This document shows positions 1 through 17,603 of a DNA stretch of 17,603 nt, piece by piece. A model generated the notes under the pieces. It saw only the letters and a list, made by a program, of their open reading frames with translations, did not search any database and was not told where the DNA came from. Each line of letters starts with the position of its first letter. Positions within the stretch are counted from its first letter, which is position 1. The position numbers and the translations under genes are program-made. Source of the stretch: a virus (lineage: Duplodnaviria; Heunggongvirae; Uroviricota; Caudoviricetes); the IMG/VR virus record IMGVR_UViG_2703718840_000011. The stretch is one strand, 5' to 3'.

Positions 1-207
1 ATGCCAAACGGCGCTGTGGACGCGTTAAAGGAAGAATTAACTCGACGCATCAGTAAGCGTTATGACGATGTAGAGGTGATCGTAAAAGCCACCAGCAACG
101 ATGGCCTTTCTGTTACACGCACTGCCGATAAAGATTCAGCTAAAACTTTTGTTCAGGAGACTCTGAAAGATACCTGGGAATCTGCTGACGAGTGGTTTGT
201 TCTCTAA
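1..207 (+). CDS. DinI-family (damage-inducible protein I-like) protein; probably 5'-truncated by the window edge
   Basis: 68-aa ORF ending ...[18 protein letters not shown], matching the conserved C-terminal ETWESADxWF signature of DinI-like proteins. Full-length DinI proteins are about 80 aa, so roughly 12 N-terminal residues appear to be missing. Family call is by motif recognition, not a search. Confidence 0.6.
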
Positions 208-273
208 TTAACACGTAAAATCGGTAACGGCTTGAAATCATTAAATACTCGCCCTATCGAAAGCTCACCAGCC

Positions 274-309
274 AGCCGCAACACGTTCTTACATATGACG
301 TGTCTGCGG
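274..309. repeat. 36-bp imperfect palindrome, copy 1 (AGCCGCAACACGTTCTTACATATGACGTGTCTGCGG)
   Basis: Seen directly: internal inverted arms CCGCAACACGT / ACGTGTCTGCGG. About 83 percent identical (30/36) to a second copy at 2741-2776 in the same orientation. Confidence 0.5.
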
Positions 310-323
310 TTTCAACTCCACCA

Positions 324-357
324 GCCCACCAATCATGATTGGGCTTTTTCGTTTTTC
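324..357 (+). terminator. Putative rho-independent terminator downstream of the DinI-like gene
   Basis: Short GC-containing hairpin (GCCCA ... TGGGC around the palindrome CCAATCATGATTGG) followed by CTTTTTCGTTTTTCTTC on the + strand. Confidence 0.4.
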
Positions 358-486
358 TTCACCTGCAAGCAAACCGTTGTATCATGGCGGAATGAAGATG
401 AGCTAGGAATAATCTTATGAATCAGCTCAATATTCATATAAAAACATTTCGAACTTTGGTGTACAAAACTACATAGGGATAACTTT

Positions 487-1689
487 ATGTCTCTTCGTTT
501 CAGACAAACCTTTACTTTATTTCCTGGCGTTCGACTCAACATTGGCAAGCGTGGAATAAGTGCAAGCATTGGTATGCCTGGCGCAACTGTCAATGTTGGT
601 AAAAAAGGGGTTAGAGCAACTGTCGGATTACCGGGCACAGGCTTATCTTATACTACACCTACCTTGCCCTATGATGATGGATACTCAGTTACCAATCCAT
701 TAAATCCAGCCCCTACAGAACCTCATTTGGGGTCTGGGTCATCTCCAGAAAACACACCATCGAACGCTAAAATATATATGCCTGTAGCTGGCATGAATGA
801 AATATCCAGCGCTTCGGTAGAAGTCCTTACAAGTACCTCCCTTTTACCTTTACGAGATTTGATTGCTAAAGCACGAGAACAAAGAGCAGAGATAAAAGCA
901 GATCTTCAAGAGGCTCTTGCCGAAGAATCAAAACAAAAAAGCGAGCTGGCTCGACGCAAATCAAGTCTATTCCGTTGGTTTTACAAACGACGCATCGCAG
1001 AACTTGAGACACTACTCCCCCTAACCCAAGCTGAGATATCTCGCCTAGTTTCATGGGAAGACAGCACAAAAATAGCCATAACATTCGAGAGCAGTGATGC
1101 TTCACAGCGCGCATATGCAGCGATGGTCCATGCATTTGATATGTTAAAATCGAGTGTCAAAAAATGGGATATTACTGCAGATAAAGCTACAGACCAGTTT
1201 GCTGAAAGAACATTAGCAACCCGGTCTGTTAATCGTCACCCAGTTACCTTTGATTTTAGTTCAACGGATCTCATTCAATTTACAGGGCGTGCGATGAGGT
1301 TTGAAAATGCAAATGGAGACGATATTTTGCTTTATCCTGGAGTTGCAGTCATACCACGAGCCGATGGAGCATTCGCTCTGATTGATTTACGCGAATTACA
1401 AATTAGTTCAGAATATCTAAGATTCCATGAGGAAGAAGGTGTTCCCAGTGACTCACGCATAGATGGTTATACATGGGCGAAAACGAATAAGAATGGCTCA
1501 CCAGACCGTCGTTTTAAAGACAACTACCAAATCCCTATTTGCATTTATGGAAATATTACTTTCCATTCTCAAACAGGGGTAACTGAAGAATATATGGTAT
1601 CAAATGCAGATGCCGCGCACGCCTTTGCTGAGGCAGTAAAACGCTATCAGATTTCACTCACAGAAACAGAAGCGTTGGTACAAGCCTAA
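487..1689 (+). CDS. Hypothetical protein with N-terminal DUF4236-like glycine-rich motif (400 aa)
   Basis: Long ORF with AGGGA about 8 nt upstream of the ATG. N-terminus FRQTFTLFPGVRLNIGKRGISASIGMPGATVNVGKKGVRATVGLPGTGLSY fits the pattern I associate with DUF4236; the remaining ~340 aa have no domain I recognise. AT-rich relative to neighbouring phage genes. Confidence 0.7.
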   Translation: MSLRFRQTFTLFPGVRLNIGKRGISASIGMPGATVNVGKKGVRATVGLPGTGLSYTTPTLPYDDGYSVTNPLNPAPTEPHLGSGSSPENTPSNAKIYMPVAGMNEISSASVEVLTSTSLLPLRDLIAKAREQRAEIKADLQEALAEESKQKSELARRKSSLFRWFYKRRIAELETLLPLTQAEISRLVSWEDSTKIAITFESSDASQRAYAAMVHAFDMLKSSVKKWDITADKATDQFAERTLATRSVNRHPVTFDFSSTDLIQFTGRAMRFENANGDDILLYPGVAVIPRADGAFALIDLRELQISSEYLRFHEEEGVPSDSRIDGYTWAKTNKNGSPDRRFKDNYQIPICIYGNITFHSQTGVTEEYMVSNADAAHAFAEAVKRYQISLTETEALVQA

Positions 1690-1885
1690 TTTATCGCCGA
1701 TATGGGGACGAATCGTAGGTTAAAACCCCTCGAACAAAAAAACCTTAAGAACCAGACTATTATGGCTGGTTCTTATACGGAGGATTTGTTATTGTACAAC
1801 TCTTCTATCTGGTATATTTACGGATAGAACTGTTCGGGCTACTCAATCCTTTTTAAGTACAAATGAACAGATAGAAATAGTTATA

Positions 1886-2688
1886 TTGCAAGGAGCTATC
1901 ATGCACACTGAGTATATATGGCGATATCTTGACATAGAGAAGTTCTCTATGTTACTCGAACAAAATGCTTTATTTTTTTGCTCAGCAAAAAATTTTGAAG
2001 ATCCGTTCGAAGGTGAATTTGCTTGGGGACATACTGGCTATAAAAAATTCATTGAGACACAGGAAAAACTATGCGCTACTCATGGTGCCGGCATGGACTT
2101 AGAGCCTTTCATGGCATTCAATTTAAAGACACTTAAGGAAATAAGCGAGAGGACATATATAAGTTGCTGGCATTGTAACGAACATGAATCTGAAGCTATG
2201 TGGAAGCTGTATTGTAAAAACCCCGCTAAAGGCGTTGTCATAAAATCAAAGAAAAAAACCTCCAAAGCCAACTTGAAAATAATAATCTAAACAAACTACA
2301 ATTAAAACACGTAAAATACATCAAAAATTTCTGGATAAAACAATACAATCCAGAATCAGATGTATTCTTTAACAAGAGACCATCTTTCGAACACGAAAAA
2401 GAGTTTAGAGCTATTTTTCAAGAGAATACCTTTAACACTCCACCTGTAAAGGGAAAATTAGTCCCTGTATCTCTTAATAATCTGTTGGAAGAAATAAGGA
2501 TTTCACCTTTCGCAGATAAGGATTTCAAAAATGAAGTTTTACAAATTTCAAAAAAATATGGACTAGATCTAAAAGTCAAAAACTCTGAAATTGAAATGCA
2601 TCCCATCATGCATGTTGAGGAAGAAATAATTGCAGAAGGCCCCAATTGGTATCAGTCAAAAATCAGGTTGGCAATACGTGATGCTTAA
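1886..2688 (+). pseudogene. DUF2971-like protein gene interrupted by a -1 frame change in an A7 run (track ORFs 1886-2290 and 2485-2688 are the two halves)
   Basis: N-terminal half carries the DUF2971-like signature (RYLDIEKF...LFFCSAKNFEDPFEGE). Frame 1 is open from about 2230 to 2688 and continues the protein sensibly. Adding one A to the A7 run at about 2252-2258 would fuse both halves into one ~267-aa ORF, a typical DUF2971 length. Confidence 0.6.
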
Positions 2689-2740
2689 TCTTATATTGAA
2701 TTTTTTTATGTCTCCTGCTGAAACTAGCTAAAATTTACCA

Positions 2741-2776
2741 AGCCGCAGCACGTTATTGCATACAACGTGTATGCGG
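2741..2776. repeat. 36-bp imperfect palindrome, copy 2 (AGCCGCAGCACGTTATTGCATACAACGTGTATGCGG)
   Basis: Seen directly: 30/36 identity with the copy at 274-309, same orientation. Lies between the stop of the DUF2971-like gene and the stop of tfa (convergent), so it may also act as a hairpin terminator for the minus-strand tail operon. Confidence 0.5.
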
Positions 2777-2791
2777 CGTATCTCAAAACGA

Positions 2792-3376
2792 TTACTCCAT
2801 AACAGGGACAGCAGGCCACTCAATATCCGGTGCTACTGATGTATCAACACGGTTCAGCAACACCCGATACTTTTTCCAGGCTTCCAGCAATGAGGTTTCT
2901 TCCTCCGTTGCAATTTCCAGATCTGCAGCATCCTGAAGCGGCGCAATATGCTCACTGGCTACCTGCATCAGGTTGTTTTTTGTTTCTTCCGCCTCCCGGA
3001 TCCGGAACAGTTTTTCTGCTTCCGTATCCTTCACCCAGGCTGTGCCGTTCCACTTCTGAAACTCCCCTTCCGGCGATAACCAGGTAACATTTTCCGGTAA
3101 CGGACCGAGTTCAGAAATAAATAACTCGTCCCCTGACGCTACGTCATAAACCGTTTTACCCCGATGGTCTTCAACGAGATGCCACGATGCCTCATCACTG
3201 TTGAAAACAGCCACAAAGCCAGCAGGAATATCTGGTGGTGCAATATCGGTACTGTTTGCTGGCAGACCTGTATGAGGCGGAATATATGCGTCACCTTCAC
3301 CAATAAATTCATTAGTTCCGGCCAGCAGATTATAAATTTTTATGGTCCGTGCTTGTTCACTCATTCTGAATGCCAT
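2792..3376 (-). CDS. tfa: Tail fiber assembly protein (Tfa family, lambdoid type)
   Basis: 194-aa [57 protein letters not shown]... closely matches Tfa proteins of E. coli lambdoid prophages as I recall them. Start overlaps the stop of the upstream stf-type ORF (TAATG). Confidence 0.85.
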
Positions 3377-4455
3377 TATGCAAGCCTCACAATATAGTTA
3401 AATGCGATGTTTTTGACGGTGTTTTCCGCGTTACCCGCAGCGTTAACGGTGATGGTGTGTCCATGTGAACCAATCGCAACGGAGTGCGTATGCGCACCAA
3501 TACCTACAGTATGTGCATGTGCGCCAGAACTTGCTGCAGTACCAGACAGCGAGTGGGTATGAGCACCTGCTGACTGTGTCTGAATACGTTGATAATACGA
3601 TCTATAGGAAGAAGTCTCCGGGCTTACTTGATACTGTGAATTCTGGACATAAGTGAACCCACCGCCATCATAAAATGCTAACGCAGAACCGCCGCCTCCT
3701 GGCCAACGAATACCATTACCATGAGTATGAACACCGGCAGACCCCGTAGAGCCACTCAGACTGTGCGTATGCGCCCCGGTGTTATTCGTGGATTTAGTGC
3801 CGTAATCAAACGACGATGTGGTTTTCGTCCCTAAATCCGTACTGGATGCGCTGGCGCTGTGGGTGTGCGATTTAATGCCGTCCTGTTCCTGAGACAATAC
3901 GGCCCGGCCACTGGCGGGTTTGCCCTTGATTGTCCAGCCGCGCATATCTGGAATAACACCTGAAGGATAGGCAATAGCCAGTTTCGGATATGCTGCCTTA
4001 TCAAACGTCTGCCCCTGCATGATTGCATAACCTGCAGGTGGTGTATCTGATGGCCACGGCAGCGGAACACCTGGCGGAAACGCTTCAATATTTGCCGAGC
4101 CGTCAAATTTTACGCCGTTAATTGTCCTTGCAGTTTGCAATTTGGTTGCTGTGCTTGCATTACCCGATAAAGATCCAGTGATACCACCACTCGCGTTTAA
4201 TTTAGTTGCAATTGTAACATTGCCAGTATGGTTACTAATTATAAACGGCCTTAAGCTATTGTGCGTACCAAGACTGTTAAACTCATAACGGTATTTCACG
4301 TTAATCCCGTTCAGATCATCACTACCGGGAACGTTCGTCGAGGCATGGAGATACCCCGCGCTCAGCGTGGACTGATGTTCTGCTGCACTCGCTGGCGTAG
4401 CAGCGGCGACCTGCCAGACTACTGCGGACAAAATAACAGCACATAATTTACGCAT
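3376..4455 (-). CDS. Chimeric ORF: Lom-type signal peptide and N-terminus (~60 aa) fused in frame to the C-terminal part of a side tail fiber (Stf-type) protein
   Basis: N-terminus [59 protein letters not shown] is lambda Lom-like (signal peptide plus first beta strands). The rest is tail-fiber-like ([13 protein letters not shown], repeated HxH motifs, C-terminal [11 protein letters not shown]). Junction near 4270-4285. GAGG RBS upstream of the ATG. Confidence 0.7.
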
Positions 4456-13494: not shown

Positions 13495-13704
13495 ATGGCA
13501 AAACTAATGAAAGCGAGCCAATGGGGACGCCGTGAATTCTCTAATGGCTCAATTCCTGACAACCGAACGATAAAACGCTGGGTCGAGAACGGTCTGCTCA
13601 TGGGGCGTATAGTGGACGGTTCTGTTTTTGTCTGCGAAACAGAAAAATGGGGAGTCGACTCAATGGTTAGTCAAGCTGTTCGCAAGTTAATAAATGAGGG
13701 ATGA
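13495..13704 (+). CDS. xis: Excisionase (lambda Xis-type)
   Basis: KASQWGRREFSNGSIPDNRTIKRWVENGLLMGRIVDGSVFVCETEKWGV parallels lambda Xis (LQEWNARQRRPRSLETVRRWVRECRIFPP...GREYLFHESAVKV). Start chosen at the ATG with GGAG 8 nt upstream. Its stop overlaps the integrase start. Confidence 0.6.
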   Translation: MAKLMKASQWGRREFSNGSIPDNRTIKRWVENGLLMGRIVDGSVFVCETEKWGVDSMVSQAVRKLINEG

Positions 13705-14885
13705 CCATGGCGGCAAGGCCACGTAAAAAAGAATACAGACATCTTCCTGATTATCTGGTTTTTGATAAAGATCGAGGTGTTTATAAATTCACACTTATTA
13801 CCGGAAAAAAGAAAAATATAGGTAAGGATCGGGCAATAGCCGTTGCAATCGCCAGAGAGTACAACCTGAGGATGCGATCAGAATTATACCCATCAGTGGA
13901 TAATCTTATTAGAGAATCTGGCGGGGTCACCGGAGAAGCAAAACCATTTGCTGAACATGTCGATCACATAATGGCCAGAATTATCGAAGACGAACGACCT
14001 TCCCAGAGTACCTTAGATGACTGGAAAAATGACGCTCTACGCGTAAAAGCATTTTTCGTAAATGTTCCGGCATGCGATATCGAACTTGAACACGTTAATG
14101 CCTACATCAACAAATATCATGCCAGCGCATCCGCAAATGTGCAGAACAGAAAGGTCAGCTTTCTTAAAAAGTTGTTCTCTTATGCGGTCGATGAATCACT
14201 AATGCAGGATAACCCGGCCATCAGAAAAAAAATGCGTAGGACTGATGAGAAGAAAAGACGGCGCCTGTCACTCGAGCATTTTATAGCTATCAGGCAGGCC
14301 GCTGCACCATGGTTAAGAACAGCAATGGACCTAGCATTGCAGACTACACATGCACGACTCGAAGTATCGCGAATCCGTTACTCAATTCGCGAACCTAAAG
14401 ACGGTTTATGTGGATGTGTTTGGTTCGAACAACCACAAAATGGCATATATGGTACACTATACATCCATAGGCAAAAAGTACAAAAAAAGGAGGCATCACA
14501 TGTTGCAATACCAATTGGTGAAGAATTGAAACGGATAATTGACAATAGCCGTGACAATGTGGCCAGTCCCTTTGTCGTTCATAGAATCCCAGAACGGCAT
14601 GTTAAACGCAGTAAAGAGGTTTCGCACCCAACTCAAGTTGCACCAGATTATTTGAGTCGGTCATTCTCTTCCGTGCGAGACAAACTCGGACTATGCAATC
14701 ATCTAGCAATGGAACAAAGACCTACATTCCATGAAATAAGAGCTTTGGCAGCTCACCTATTTGATAAACAAGGGATTGATCCGCAGGGACGAATGGCACA
14801 TAGCGATGCGAAATCTACTAAAATTTATACTAAAAATCATATAGATTGGATTGTTGTCCCTCATGGAGAAATTAAAACCGGTTAG
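13701..14885 (+). CDS. int: Tyrosine-type site-specific integrase (lambda Int family)
   Basis: 394 aa. C-terminal catalytic region with H-x-x-R (TFHEIRALAAHLF) and the tyrosine motif (MAHSDAKSTKIYTKNH). Arm-binding-like N-terminus. Xis immediately upstream. Confidence 0.9.
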   Translation: MTMAARPRKKEYRHLPDYLVFDKDRGVYKFTLITGKKKNIGKDRAIAVAIAREYNLRMRSELYPSVDNLIRESGGVTGEAKPFAEHVDHIMARIIEDERPSQSTLDDWKNDALRVKAFFVNVPACDIELEHVNAYINKYHASASANVQNRKVSFLKKLFSYAVDESLMQDNPAIRKKMRRTDEKKRRRLSLEHFIAIRQAAAPWLRTAMDLALQTTHARLEVSRIRYSIREPKDGLCGCVWFEQPQNGIYGTLYIHRQKVQKKEASHVAIPIGEELKRIIDNSRDNVASPFVVHRIPERHVKRSKEVSHPTQVAPDYLSRSFSSVRDKLGLCNHLAMEQRPTFHEIRALAAHLFDKQGIDPQGRMAHSDAKSTKIYTKNHIDWIVVPHGEIKTG

Positions 14886-15022: not shown

Positions 15023-15985
15023 TTATTTACCCTTATTATACTCTTCAGTAATCTTATTCATGGATGATATATATTTATCCAGCCCACCATAGTTGGCTAT
15101 CATTCGAAATGAATTACGGTACTCTGCCATTTTCACATCATGATTAGTAATTCCACACCAGCCACAAACTTTATTTTCCATGTTTAAAGGCTCATAACAT
15201 TTTTTACATTGCCTTGATGCAGGTATTATATTGCCATTAATAAATTGGTGTGATTTGAGATTTTGAGATAAAAGAAATGGTGTAGTTGTTGTTTTTCCTA
15301 TTACCATTTCGAAATATCTACATTTAGCCTTTTTAGCTAAAGATTGAATTTTCTGCTTTAATAAATCATTTGATTTGTGCCCAACTATAACTCCAGTTAT
15401 ACAATTAATCGGTACCGGAAGGAGCATAAGATTGTCATTCAGTTTAGTAAGTGCTTTCTCATTAATTATTACGCGACGTTCCTGCTCATAACTCCAGCAA
15501 GTTTGTTTTGTCAAATATGCGGCTGTCATTATACAGGATTGTAGCCAGTAGATATAACGAGGTTTACAGATATGAAATGCTCTCGCCAGAATGTCTTCAA
15601 TACCTGTATCTGGAGAATCTTTATATTCAACATCTGCTATTGAACTATGATCCTGGAAGCCGATTTCATCCAAATACTTTTTAAACTTCTCCTCATTAAT
15701 CTCTATTACAAAACCAGAAGAATTACCTGCATAATGTGCCCACATAGGTGGTATCACAGGGCTTTTCGTAAAACAAGTTGCTGGTTGTTTTGTAACCATG
15801 CCAATCATTTCATTGTAAAATGCTAACTCATCAGAACCGCGATTAAAATCAATAGTAAGGAAAAACTCATAGGGATCATTATATTCATGTAAATGAGAGA
15901 ATTTTATTCCTATATGTGTTTCATCCATCATCAATTTATCAATTATATCCGCTCCCATAAACTTATACAAATTGGTCATATACAA
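15023..15985 (-). CDS. DUF2971-family protein with C-terminal CxxC...CxxC zinc ribbon (320 aa)
   Basis: N-terminal NLYKFMGADIIDKL...IKFSHLHEYNDPYEF matches the DUF2971 hallmark (LYKY...FS.P..FNDPFE). C-terminus CKKCYEPLNMENKVCGWCG. AAGGAG RBS 7 nt upstream. Strongly AT-rich gene and flanks. Confidence 0.75.
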   Translation of the reverse strand: MYMTNLYKFMGADIIDKLMMDETHIGIKFSHLHEYNDPYEFFLTIDFNRGSDELAFYNEMIGMVTKQPATCFTKSPVIPPMWAHYAGNSSGFVIEINEEKFKKYLDEIGFQDHSSIADVEYKDSPDTGIEDILARAFHICKPRYIYWLQSCIMTAAYLTKQTCWSYEQERRVIINEKALTKLNDNLMLLPVPINCITGVIVGHKSNDLLKQKIQSLAKKAKCRYFEMVIGKTTTTPFLLSQNLKSHQFINGNIIPASRQCKKCYEPLNMENKVCGWCGITNHDVKMAEYRNSFRMIANYGGLDKYISSMNKITEEYNKGK

Positions 15986-16462: not shown

Positions 16463-16846
16463 TTAGGACGCTTTAGACTTGGTCATATTAGCGCAACGCT
16501 GGATTAATTTCTCTGCAGTCTTAATCGCGGTGCTTGATTGGGTTGGCGTAATAGTGTCGTTAAGTCTGTAATCACAAACTATTCTCTGATCCTTAAGCGA
16601 TTGAAGAGCATACCCCAAACCAATTAAGTCTCTTTTTTCAAAAGGTTCGTTACCCTTCCAAGCATCGTTAACAAGATAGTCAATGAGGCCTTGGTGACTT
16701 TCTTTCGGCCCCATGGTCAAACACGGAAGTACGTGGTGATAAGCACCATAATACGCACGTGCGACAGCGTTTCTGTAACCAATTTCGTCGTTACGCTTTT
16801 CACAATCTTTTGCGAAAGCGATAAAATCGGAACTATTAACTGGCAC
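16463..16846 (-). CDS. Hypothetical small protein (~127 aa from a GTG start); possible Rx6H HEPN-like motif (speculative)
   Basis: The track ORF starts at ATG 16897, which would overlap the upstream gene by 62 nt. An in-frame GTG at about 16846 is preceded by a perfect GGAGG 7 nt upstream (inside the 3' end of the upstream gene). The motif RAYYGAYHH is noted. AT-rich. Confidence 0.5.
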   Translation of the reverse strand: MPVNSSDFIAFAKDCEKRNDEIGYRNAVARAYYGAYHHVLPCLTMGPKESHQGLIDYLVNDAWKGNEPFEKRDLIGLGYALQSLKDQRIVCDYRLNDTITPTQSSTAIKTAEKLIQRCANMTKSKAS

Positions 16847-17603
16847 GCGCAGGTTCCTCCAAACGCCCTTCAAACCATACGCTGAAGGGTTTTCCAATCA
16901 AACTTTCATTTTCTGCAAGAGAAAATGCTATATCCAAGTTCATATCAGAGAGAACATCAGAATCTTCAGTATTAACTGCCATGACATATGATGACGTACG
17001 CTCTTCAGGGATAGAGCAGAAAGACATAGCAACAGGACTAACTTTATGGTCAGCCATGATATCCACTATGCGGTTTGCAATATCCTGTAGTTCTTCATCA
17101 GTAATTCCAGTTGCACTTTTGAAGGTCGTGGATTGGGCCAGTGCTGTGGCTGCGAGGTGCTTAACCAATTCAGCCTCCTTTTCATCTACCATACTTATCA
17201 ATCTCTCAGCATAGTAGAGCGCTTTGTCAATACGCCCCAAGAACAAGTTAGCTTCCCATGCATGGGACAGCATCGTAGGGGAGTTATAACGTTCAACTAA
17301 TCGATTTACCACTTGTTCAACTTCACGGAAGCTGCCGTAATCGTTGAGATAAACTACATAATTTTGAGCAATGATCAGGTTGTTATGCTTCAATGCTTCT
17401 TCAAAGAATGCAACTGCAGTATCTTTACGCCCAAAAGCACCATTAGCCAACGCTTTGAGATAGTCCTCAGATGCGCTGTCGCGCAACTTTTCTATATCTC
17501 TGATATAACGAAAATATTGCATTTCGGATATCGTATTCCGAGCCGCAAGAATATCGATTAATTCACTGCTGATTTCGTTCGCTTTTAGCGCCGGCTGTGG
17601 CAT
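16836..17603 (-). CDS. Hypothetical alpha-helical (TPR-like) protein, 255 aa; 5' end at the window edge, possibly partial
   Basis: Long ORF whose ATG coincides with the last bases of the window. Helical repeat-like composition (YLKALANGAFGRKDTAVAFFEEALKHNNLIIAQNYVVYL...). Its 3' end contains the RBS for the downstream gene. Confidence 0.55.
   Translation of the reverse strand: MPQPALKANEISSELIDILAARNTISEMQYFRYIRDIEKLRDSASEDYLKALANGAFGRKDTAVAFFEEALKHNNLIIAQNYVVYLNDYGSFREVEQVVNRLVERYNSPTMLSHAWEANLFLGRIDKALYYAERLISMVDEKEAELVKHLAATALAQSTTFKSATGITDEELQDIANRIVDIMADHKVSPVAMSFCSIPEERTSSYVMAVNTEDSDVLSDMNLDIAFSLAENESLIGKPFSVWFEGRLEEPARAS

Follow-up and report, generated by a model that had tools for sequence, protein, structure and literature searches.

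Two neighbouring cargo genes, encoding DUF4236 and DUF2971 proteins, as probably independent occupants of the attachment-proximal slot of a lambdoid prophage

Do two neighbouring cargo genes at one end of a prophage make up a single system, or do they share a slot by chance? The question is raised by positions 208-2790 of the IMG/VR viral record IMGVR_UViG_2703718840_000011, whose 17,603 nucleotides are referred to here as the window. A first-pass annotation, made from the letters alone, had described this stretch as an AT-rich cassette of two same-strand genes, one encoding a 400-residue protein with an N-terminal DUF4236 motif (gene 1) and the other a DUF2971-like protein (gene 2), and had proposed that the pair could be a defence module. 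The explanation that we favour, and consider on the whole probable, is that 208-2790 is the attachment (att)-proximal cargo slot of a proL-integrated lambdoid prophage and holds two independent single-gene morons, which recombination would have placed side by side. We are confident of the anatomy of the region, of the independence of the two genes and of the nature of the DUF2971 gene.

The composition and the open reading frames (ORFs) agreed with the description of an AT-rich insert with two same-strand genes. The guanine-plus-cytosine (GC) content was 0.30 to 0.44 over 200-2800 (0.43 for the DUF4236 gene and 0.34 for the DUF2971 region), compared to 0.50 to 0.57 in the tail genes to the right. 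In two complete Escherichia coli genomes, the gene order was yejM, the tRNA-Pro gene (proL), the DinI-like gene, DUF4236 and DUF2971, followed on the opposite strand by the tail fibre assembly, tail fibre, lom and J genes; one of these genomes was identical to the window over 208-2790, and the other differed solely in an A-tract. The flanks recur in prophages with other contents. Over window positions 1-314, the dinI flank of the prophage in H10407 showed 94% identity, and 2741-2790 were 100% identical in cargo-free E. coli prophages. Between the same flanks, H10407 carries an acetyltransferase gene and a helix-turn-helix remnant, while strain 6409 carries a gene for a 1083-residue protein and integrase fragments. 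A slot that is empty or otherwise filled in 6409 and H10407, and that also deviates in composition, is what is expected of a moron site, and the placing of the two genes as accessory cargo next to the tail fibre genes was supported. The genes of the slot converge on the tail fibre assembly gene and adjoin the att site, which makes it the equivalent of the b region of lambda. The block of DUF4236, DUF2971 and tail fibre assembly genes was found at four E. coli integration sites (proL, thrW, icd and yegL/ibsA), and the genes to its left varied, including those for an S1 peptidase and a DUF3800 protein.

Two mutually homologous hairpins (H1 and H2) bracket the slot, and strain 6409 has a single copy representing both, abutting the tail fibre assembly gene. 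H1 and H2 were considered as end repeats of a mobile cassette and rejected, since each lies within conserved phage DNA that is also found without cargo.

The description of the two genes as a cassette did not hold up. In E. coli, they were same-strand neighbours in all 122 complete genomes that had either of them (of 5426). A profile search, in which the positive control worked, found no DUF2971 gene within 10 kb of the 400-residue gene at any of 80 loci from species-representative genomes. In IMG/VR, the pairing occurred only in six identical E. coli contigs, among 53 loci with the 400-residue gene and 75 with DUF2971. The conserved DUF4236-DUF2971 adjacency for which the first-pass annotation had proposed a search was thus not seen outside one E. 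coli lineage, an outcome that the annotation had named as grounds against its reading, and what had looked like a cassette is a juxtaposition. DNA comparisons also divided the region into separate homology blocks, one (341-1777) shared with Klebsiella-type loci and the other (1881-2688) with stand-alone DUF2971 loci, and a tRNA-Pro core relic and a terminator-derived hairpin lie between the two genes. Because an att core now stands between the genes, it constitutes direct sequence evidence against their joint acquisition. As far as can be read from sequence, genes 1 and 2 are not a unit except by descent in one E. coli lineage.

The edges of the gene 1 module record where it has been. DNA identity to Klebsiella and Pseudenterobacter loci was 88.5 to 89.9% over exactly 341-1777. 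The conserved upstream part includes a promoter-like sequence, TTCACC-16-TATCAT, at 358-385, which scored no better in a scan than shuffled sequence. At the left edge of the module lies a relic of the 3' end of the transfer-messenger RNA (tmRNA) gene ssrA, which was 89.7% identical over 39 columns (blastn) to the real tmRNA gene end upstream of the Klebsiella/Pseudenterobacter orthologue, and directly after the stop codon lies a degenerate relic of proL, an old attachment core. In Klebsiella, Enterobacter and Pseudenterobacter, the 400-residue gene was found ~290 nt downstream of a real tmRNA gene. Directly 3' of the gene, the same loci have an intact 48-nt 3' end of tRNA-Pro (100% identity to E. 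coli proL), and then a terminator and GGGGAA-type repeats, which resemble the DNA after proL in an E. coli lysogen and not that of the naive site. With ssrA on its left and proL on its right, the module was therefore inherited as a block that once lay beside two different phage attachment cores. This bracketing by two tRNA-type cores shows that gene 1 has repeatedly been the outermost gene beside the attachment site of a phage, and the block may have been assembled by swaps of integration modules or by imprecise excision.

It was also noted that the intact proL 3' end sits in ssrA-adjacent prophages (loci L003, L017 and L105-L133), where it looks like an unrecombined proL-type att site, a fossil. 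A tmRNA repeat downstream of the Klebsiella gene was considered and rejected, since that 3' repeat is found upstream of the gene and the element downstream of it comes from tRNA-Pro.

Gene 2 belongs to an already known kind. Its start is the ATG at 1901, preceded by AAGGAG, and its homologues have 262 residues. After repair of the frameshift described below, the 262-residue protein matched Pfam DUF2971 (PF11185) with 29.3 bits (gathering score 22) and four PADLOC PDC-S31 models (best E 1.2e-21). An AlphaFold model of the repaired protein, built with 43 homologues, had a predicted local distance difference test score (pLDDT) of 92, and its predicted fold was that of an ADP-ribosyltransferase, closest to the DarT ADP-ribosyltransferases. 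Residues E166, E168 and R170 were invariant across the 43 homologues; E166 and E168 correspond to the ExE motif that has been reported for DUF2971, a family predicted to be DarT/AbiGi-like ADP-ribosyltransferases (PMC12522546). A Lactococcus DUF2971 protein, Aristaios, has been shown experimentally to work as a one-gene system of abortive infection, interfering with transcription of the phage (PMC11381338, PMC13064643). The earlier statement that neither family had an assigned function still holds for DUF4236 and is outdated for DUF2971 (PMC12522546, PMC11381338, PMC13064643 and the PDC-S31 models). Defence was a reasonable reading of the locus, with DUF2971 being of the PDC-S31/Aristaios kind, though not as one module.

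Homology between gene 2 and stand-alone orthologues begins 20 nt upstream of the ATG and stops at the stop codon, with 79.8 to 82.3% DNA identity over 1881/1883-2688 to loci in an Enterobacter P2-like prophage and an island. Solitary orthologues of 80% identity occurred in three settings unrelated to one another: the end of an Enterobacter P2-like prophage, where the gene follows ogr; an island, beside an integrase gene; and a Pseudomonas prophage. With solitary orthologues and homology that ends at the stop codon, gene 2 has no conserved partner and qualifies as a single-gene element. By analogy to Aristaios and DarT, the intact form would most likely need no partner and serve as an abortive-infection toxin unleashed on infection. 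Gene 2 is predicted to be a DarT-like, NAD-dependent ADP-ribosyltransferase of the PDC-S31/Aristaios kind, and in the window it is dead by the loss of one A.

The frameshift that the first-pass annotation had seen in one of the genes was confirmed, in gene 2, and traced to this nucleotide. In the window, the DUF2971 frame is split into ORFs at 1886-2290 and 2485-2688, and the sole difference to strain CFS3313 over 1880-2790 was a run of seven A (A7) in place of eight (A8) at 2252-2258. The frame shifts at codon ~119 and ends at a stop at 2290, giving a product of 129 residues, ~119 of them native and 10 out of frame. The catalytic E-x-E is absent from this product, while A8 alleles in other strains retain the motif. 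Because the truncation precedes this invariant motif, the window copy is a pseudogene that cannot encode an active enzyme. The shortened tract is not private to the window: among the 122 locus-bearing complete E. coli genomes, A7 was found in 35 (O25b:H4, sequence type 131, strains included), A8 in ~86 and A6 in one, and both A7 and A8 were seen in otherwise identical cassettes. Such a polymorphism fits a slippage-prone tract, and the variation may reflect phase variation, simple decay or occasional homopolymer error, which assemblies cannot separate.

A second, intact gene of the DUF2971/PDC-S31 type was observed at 15026-15979 (-), at the other prophage end and by the integrase gene at 13701-14885 (+). 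Its 318-residue product has a C-terminal CxxC...CxxC zinc ribbon, matched PADLOC PDC-S31 with E 4.9e-22 and retains the E-x-E motif (YEQERR); it was 16% identical to the frameshifted copy, with an hhalign probability of 95%. The surrounding DNA is very AT-rich (GC 0.30 to 0.37). Past this gene lie two overlapping ORFs, 16466-16897 (-) of 144 residues and 16839-17603 (-) of 255 residues, the latter reaching the window end, and neither product (16466-17603) had a PADLOC match. Two DUF2971-family genes ~3 kb apart (locus L015, 2248-2910 and 6001-6780) were also seen in the early region of a Pseudomonas nitroreducens prophage, echoing the two paralogues of the window.

What, then, is gene 1? Pfam bore out the earlier view of a protein with an N-terminal DUF4236 motif of ~55 residues and no recognizable domain thereafter: DUF4236 matched residues 3-56 (E 7e-21; 74.9 bits, cutoff 27), and the remaining ~340 residues gave no Pfam match. 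The whole protein matched phrog_17982, a PHROG family without a function, end to end (E 3e-193). It is laid out as a cationic, Gly-rich DUF4236 domain (1-57), a Pro/Ser-rich linker (58-105), a helical hairpin (~119-193) and an alpha/beta domain (196-400). The N-domain has a net charge of +8, with eight basic and zero acidic residues (family median, +7). In the predicted structure, residues 1-116 were of low confidence (beta hairpins, then linker), followed by two long helices at 119-193 and a well-predicted alpha/beta domain at 196-400 that ends in a long helix. A PDB profile search and NCBIfam returned nothing for the C-terminal module, which had no relative of solved structure by sequence. 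The protein showed no macrodomain or other ADP-ribose hydrolase signature, DUF4236 being its sole domain. It has not proved to be any known structural or housekeeping protein, so this half of the first-pass finding stands. In the literature, DUF4236 was mentioned once, in passing, for a Salmonella prophage remnant with UmuC and YedK (PMC8049487), and a search for PF14020, IPR025330 and PDC-S31 yielded nothing relevant.

The family to which this protein belongs is large, well conserved and patchily distributed. Residues 101-400 recovered 2,911 clusters at 50% identity, 401 of them at E below 1e-30, and nearly all of these clusters carry DUF4236 in front. Full-length identity was 65 to 93% from Klebsiella, Serratia and Yersinia (Enterobacterales) to Paracoccus and Phaeobacter (Rhodobacterales), with variation only in the linker at 58-100, and the family is under strong purifying selection. 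With just two peptide patterns, relatives were picked up in 251 species of many phyla; the family spans Proteobacteria, Acidobacteriota, Bacteroidota, Nitrospirota, Planctomycetota and candidate-phyla-radiation (CPR) bacteria. Within E. coli, the locus was present in 122 of 5426 complete genomes (2%). In about one-quarter of the top 149 representatives, the module is followed by a transmembrane helix, a Pro/Ala-rich linker and SH3_3/SH3_4 or PG_binding_1. Given this layout, the conserved module of these long forms must be cytoplasmic and envelope-tethered.

The gene was AT-richer than its flanks at 60 of 78 loci and was found at four distinct mobile-element positions: the att-site end, the nin region, the Q-lysis slot and a conjugative element. 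In Klebsiella prophages, the orthologue lies at the end near ssrA; in those of Enterobacter hormaechei, it occupies the nin region, after the O/P replication genes and with dinI downstream; and in Edwardsiella, it lies between Q and the lysis genes. In the Paracoccus and Phaeobacter chromosomes, it is solitary. In a Serratia marcescens conjugative element, an 87%-identical orthologue is convergent with, and ~200 nt from, genes for an OLD-TOPRIM/AAA ATPase and a UvrD helicase; this Gabija-like OLD-TOPRIM and UvrD pair (locus L227, 8414-12012) lies between Tra genes. Clustering of ORFs across 80 genome and 53 viral loci revealed no conserved neighbour, giving only shadow ORFs and lineage-specific neighbours. 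When 30 large genes directly beside distant homologues were drawn at random, five matched PADLOC models, a figure without a matched control that we would place well above the expectation for random genes. The five were a Mokosh/PDC-S37-like helicase-nuclease, a Cap4-nuclease-STAND protein, a Schlafen-type helicase (PDC-S41), PDC-S51 and a TIR protein.

A separate observation came from Azospirillum and a related metagenome-assembled genome (loci L044-L046, 4996-9990), in which the gene for a 1,664-residue helicase-nuclease ends ~10 nt before a long-form DUF4236-family gene. The 1,664-residue protein has AAA_11/AAA_12 and MTES_1575/DUF559 domains, is Mokosh MkoA-like and matched PADLOC PDC-S37 with E 8.5e-57. 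The two genes could be an operon.

From location, mobility and neighbours, we tentatively assign the 400-residue protein a stand-alone role in conflict, defence or lysogenic conversion. It would be a cytoplasmic protein whose C-terminal module would recognize a conserved cellular or phage component and whose cationic N-domain would engage membrane or nucleic acid; in the longer relatives, the same module would be tethered to the envelope via the transmembrane helix and the periplasmic peptidoglycan-binding domain. A bolder and more speculative version is that DUF4236 and the 300-residue module make up a new, widespread single-gene conflict system with an undescribed effector or sensor domain, missed by the defence catalogues, which may act at membrane or nucleic acid through its cationic beta-hairpin N-domain. 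A number of observations count against these proposals and against parts of the two-moron explanation. The 400-residue protein had no PADLOC match (PADLOC-DB v2, E up to 1), its C-terminal module had no Pfam model in 59 members (E up to 1), its predicted structure had no significant fold match in the PDB, and the N-domain was modelled with a pLDDT of 30 to 45. Most of the PADLOC matches behind the uncontrolled neighbour figure are candidate (PDC) or single components and not complete systems. Conservation as high as this is uncommon among defence genes. In the Microcystis phage Mea-Yong924-1, a full-length homologue of 32% identity falls in the terminase/structural block, directly after the terminase large subunit gene, and the DUF4236 N-domain is common in virulent phage proteins, including those of Klebsiella, Acinetobacter and Brevundimonas phages, across ~ten PHROG families. 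The likeness of gene 2 to Aristaios comes from the domain and the models and not from direct sequence comparison, and activity of the E. coli subfamily is a prediction. Finally, the two genes occur together at four integration sites in E. coli, which makes a lineage-specific functional link possible.

The 400-residue protein could instead serve the phage, as an anti-defence, host-takeover or morphogenesis-associated factor carried along in prophages. The occurrences in the Microcystis phage and in virulent phage proteins would fit this, and the 65 to 93% identity across distant hosts is as expected for a protein directed at a conserved host machine. We nevertheless regard this as improbable, given solitary chromosomal copies without phage neighbours in many phyla, a copy in a conjugative element, the persistence of an intact gene in a ~17-kb defective prophage remnant, and the many relatives whose membrane anchor and peptidoglycan-binding domains suggest a protein resident in the cell. 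Those relatives (the quarter of the top 149 with a transmembrane helix and periplasmic SH3_3/SH3_4 or PG_binding_1), together with the spread from Proteobacteria to CPR bacteria and the strong purifying selection, could instead point to a cell-envelope or other cellular role apart from phage conflict, with the prophage copies as incidental passengers. Presence in 2% of complete E. coli genomes, the AT-richness relative to flanks, the unconserved neighbourhood and the recurrence in phage and conjugative-element cargo slots beside defence-model genes speak against such a role, which we also hold to be improbable. That the two genes are one system, in which the DUF4236 protein is a sensor, regulator or antitoxin of a DUF2971 toxin as DarG is for DarT, appears very unlikely. 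Adjacency in every E. coli genome with either gene, at four sites, would agree with it, as would the usual need of DarT-like toxins for a partner and the restriction of decay to the transferase gene while the 400-residue gene remains intact. Among the 80 genome loci and the 53 and 75 viral loci, however, the pairing is confined to one lineage with copies at least 97.9% identical, orthologues of each gene stand alone, and the homology blocks are separate, with the relic of an attachment core and a hairpin derived from a terminator between the genes; PDC-S31 and Aristaios each consist of one gene (PMC11381338), and the 400-residue protein lacks the macrodomain or hydrolase signature noted above.

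Returning to the prophage with its two independent morons, the ORF at 3376-4455 (-), read as a tail fibre gene, joins the first 63 residues of Lom to the C-terminal part of the fibre (Collar and fibre repeats), and an internal deletion has therefore occurred. From ~5680 on, the window matches DNA that is ~33 kb distant in strain CT282. The prophage is a ~17-kb deletion remnant without most structural and lysis genes. An Rfam scan of 1-3400 found nothing besides IS009 (RF02111), whose match at 2835-3033 (-), with 221 bits against a gathering score of 117, lies on the same strand as the coding sequence for tail fibre assembly and is fully contained in it. The features of the slot are collected in Table 1.

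Table 1. Positions of features in and beside the cargo slot, numbered along the window
Feature	Positions	Strand	Remarks
DinI-like gene	1..207	+	Pfam DinI, E 6.9e-20; truncated by window start; conserved left flank of slot
Hairpin H1	272..309		13-bp stem, downstream of dinI; RNA fold of 262-362 -26.9 kcal/mol, z -4.3
tmRNA (ssrA) 3'-end relic	306..342	+	T-arm, acceptor, CCA and next 11 nt; left edge of DUF4236 module
DUF4236 module	341..1777	+	travels as a single block; coding sequence with 146 nt before and 88 nt after it
400-residue protein gene (gene 1)	487..1689	+	Pfam DUF4236; full-length phrog_17982
Degenerate tRNA-Pro (proL) relic	1702..1737	+	last ~46 nt, old attachment core; directly after DUF4236 stop
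Hairpin from proL terminator	1750..1775	+	alignment with post-proL sequence in lysogen and naive site; U-tract degraded (TTCTTAT)
DUF2971 module	1881..2688	+	ribosome-binding site and ORF only; DNA homology to stand-alone orthologues
DUF2971 / PDC-S31-type, predicted DarT-like ADP-ribosyltransferase gene (gene 2)	1901..2688	+	pseudogene here; Pfam, PADLOC, model, alignment
A7 homopolymer (A8 in intact alleles)	2252..2258	+	-1 frameshift site, upstream of invariant E166-x-E168
Hairpin H2	2741..2778		folds on both strands; between convergent DUF2971 and tail fibre assembly genes; right slot edge
Tail fibre assembly gene	2792..3376	-	Pfam Caudo_TAP, E 3e-44; conserved right flank

For annotation, these results mean that the supposed cassette should be split, one half being the decayed copy of a candidate defence enzyme that the catalogues already list. 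The intact 400-residue gene is a clean and compact test case, being widespread, outside PADLOC and (beyond the N-domain) Pfam, and recurrent at sites of defence genes. If it had a phenotype, the conflict repertoire would gain a new protein domain, and a negative result would show that such hot spots carry other cargo too. The ssrA and proL relics, for their part, record how att-adjacent cargo passes between phages of different integration specificity.

Compared to known systems, gene 2 is closest to Aristaios, which is encoded on the Lactococcus plasmid pUCCL641, and to PDC-S31, sharing the DUF2971 domain, the predicted ADP-ribosyltransferase fold, a single partnerless gene and carriage on a mobile element. 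It differs in that Aristaios comes from another phylum and has 316 residues against 262 for the E. coli protein, and in that the window copy is frameshifted. With DarT of DarTG, a single-stranded DNA thymidine ADP-ribosyltransferase with a documented anti-phage role, it shares an acidic catalytic motif in the equivalent position, whereas the identity in structural alignments is 8 to 14% and the DUF2971 model has large helical inserts. The repaired protein gave no Pfam DarT match (E up to 1), returning DUF2971, and no DarG macrodomain antitoxin gene is adjacent, the neighbours being the genes for the DUF4236 protein and tail fibre assembly; the same is true of the stand-alone orthologues. For gene 1, the matches to Pfam DUF4236 and PHROG 17982 are clear, yet both are names without a function, and no family model covers the conserved C-terminal module of ~300 residues. 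The slot as a whole resembles the lambda b region and other att-adjacent morons (lom/bor, and the gtr and oac O-antigen genes by int-att), in which non-essential cargo lies between the tail fibre genes and att. Transcription toward the tail genes, deviant GC content, bracketing hairpins and contents that vary among related prophages extend this likeness. The cargo genes themselves are unrelated to those of classical morons, and the relics of ssrA and proL cores that flank one module are unusual and give this slot a readable history.

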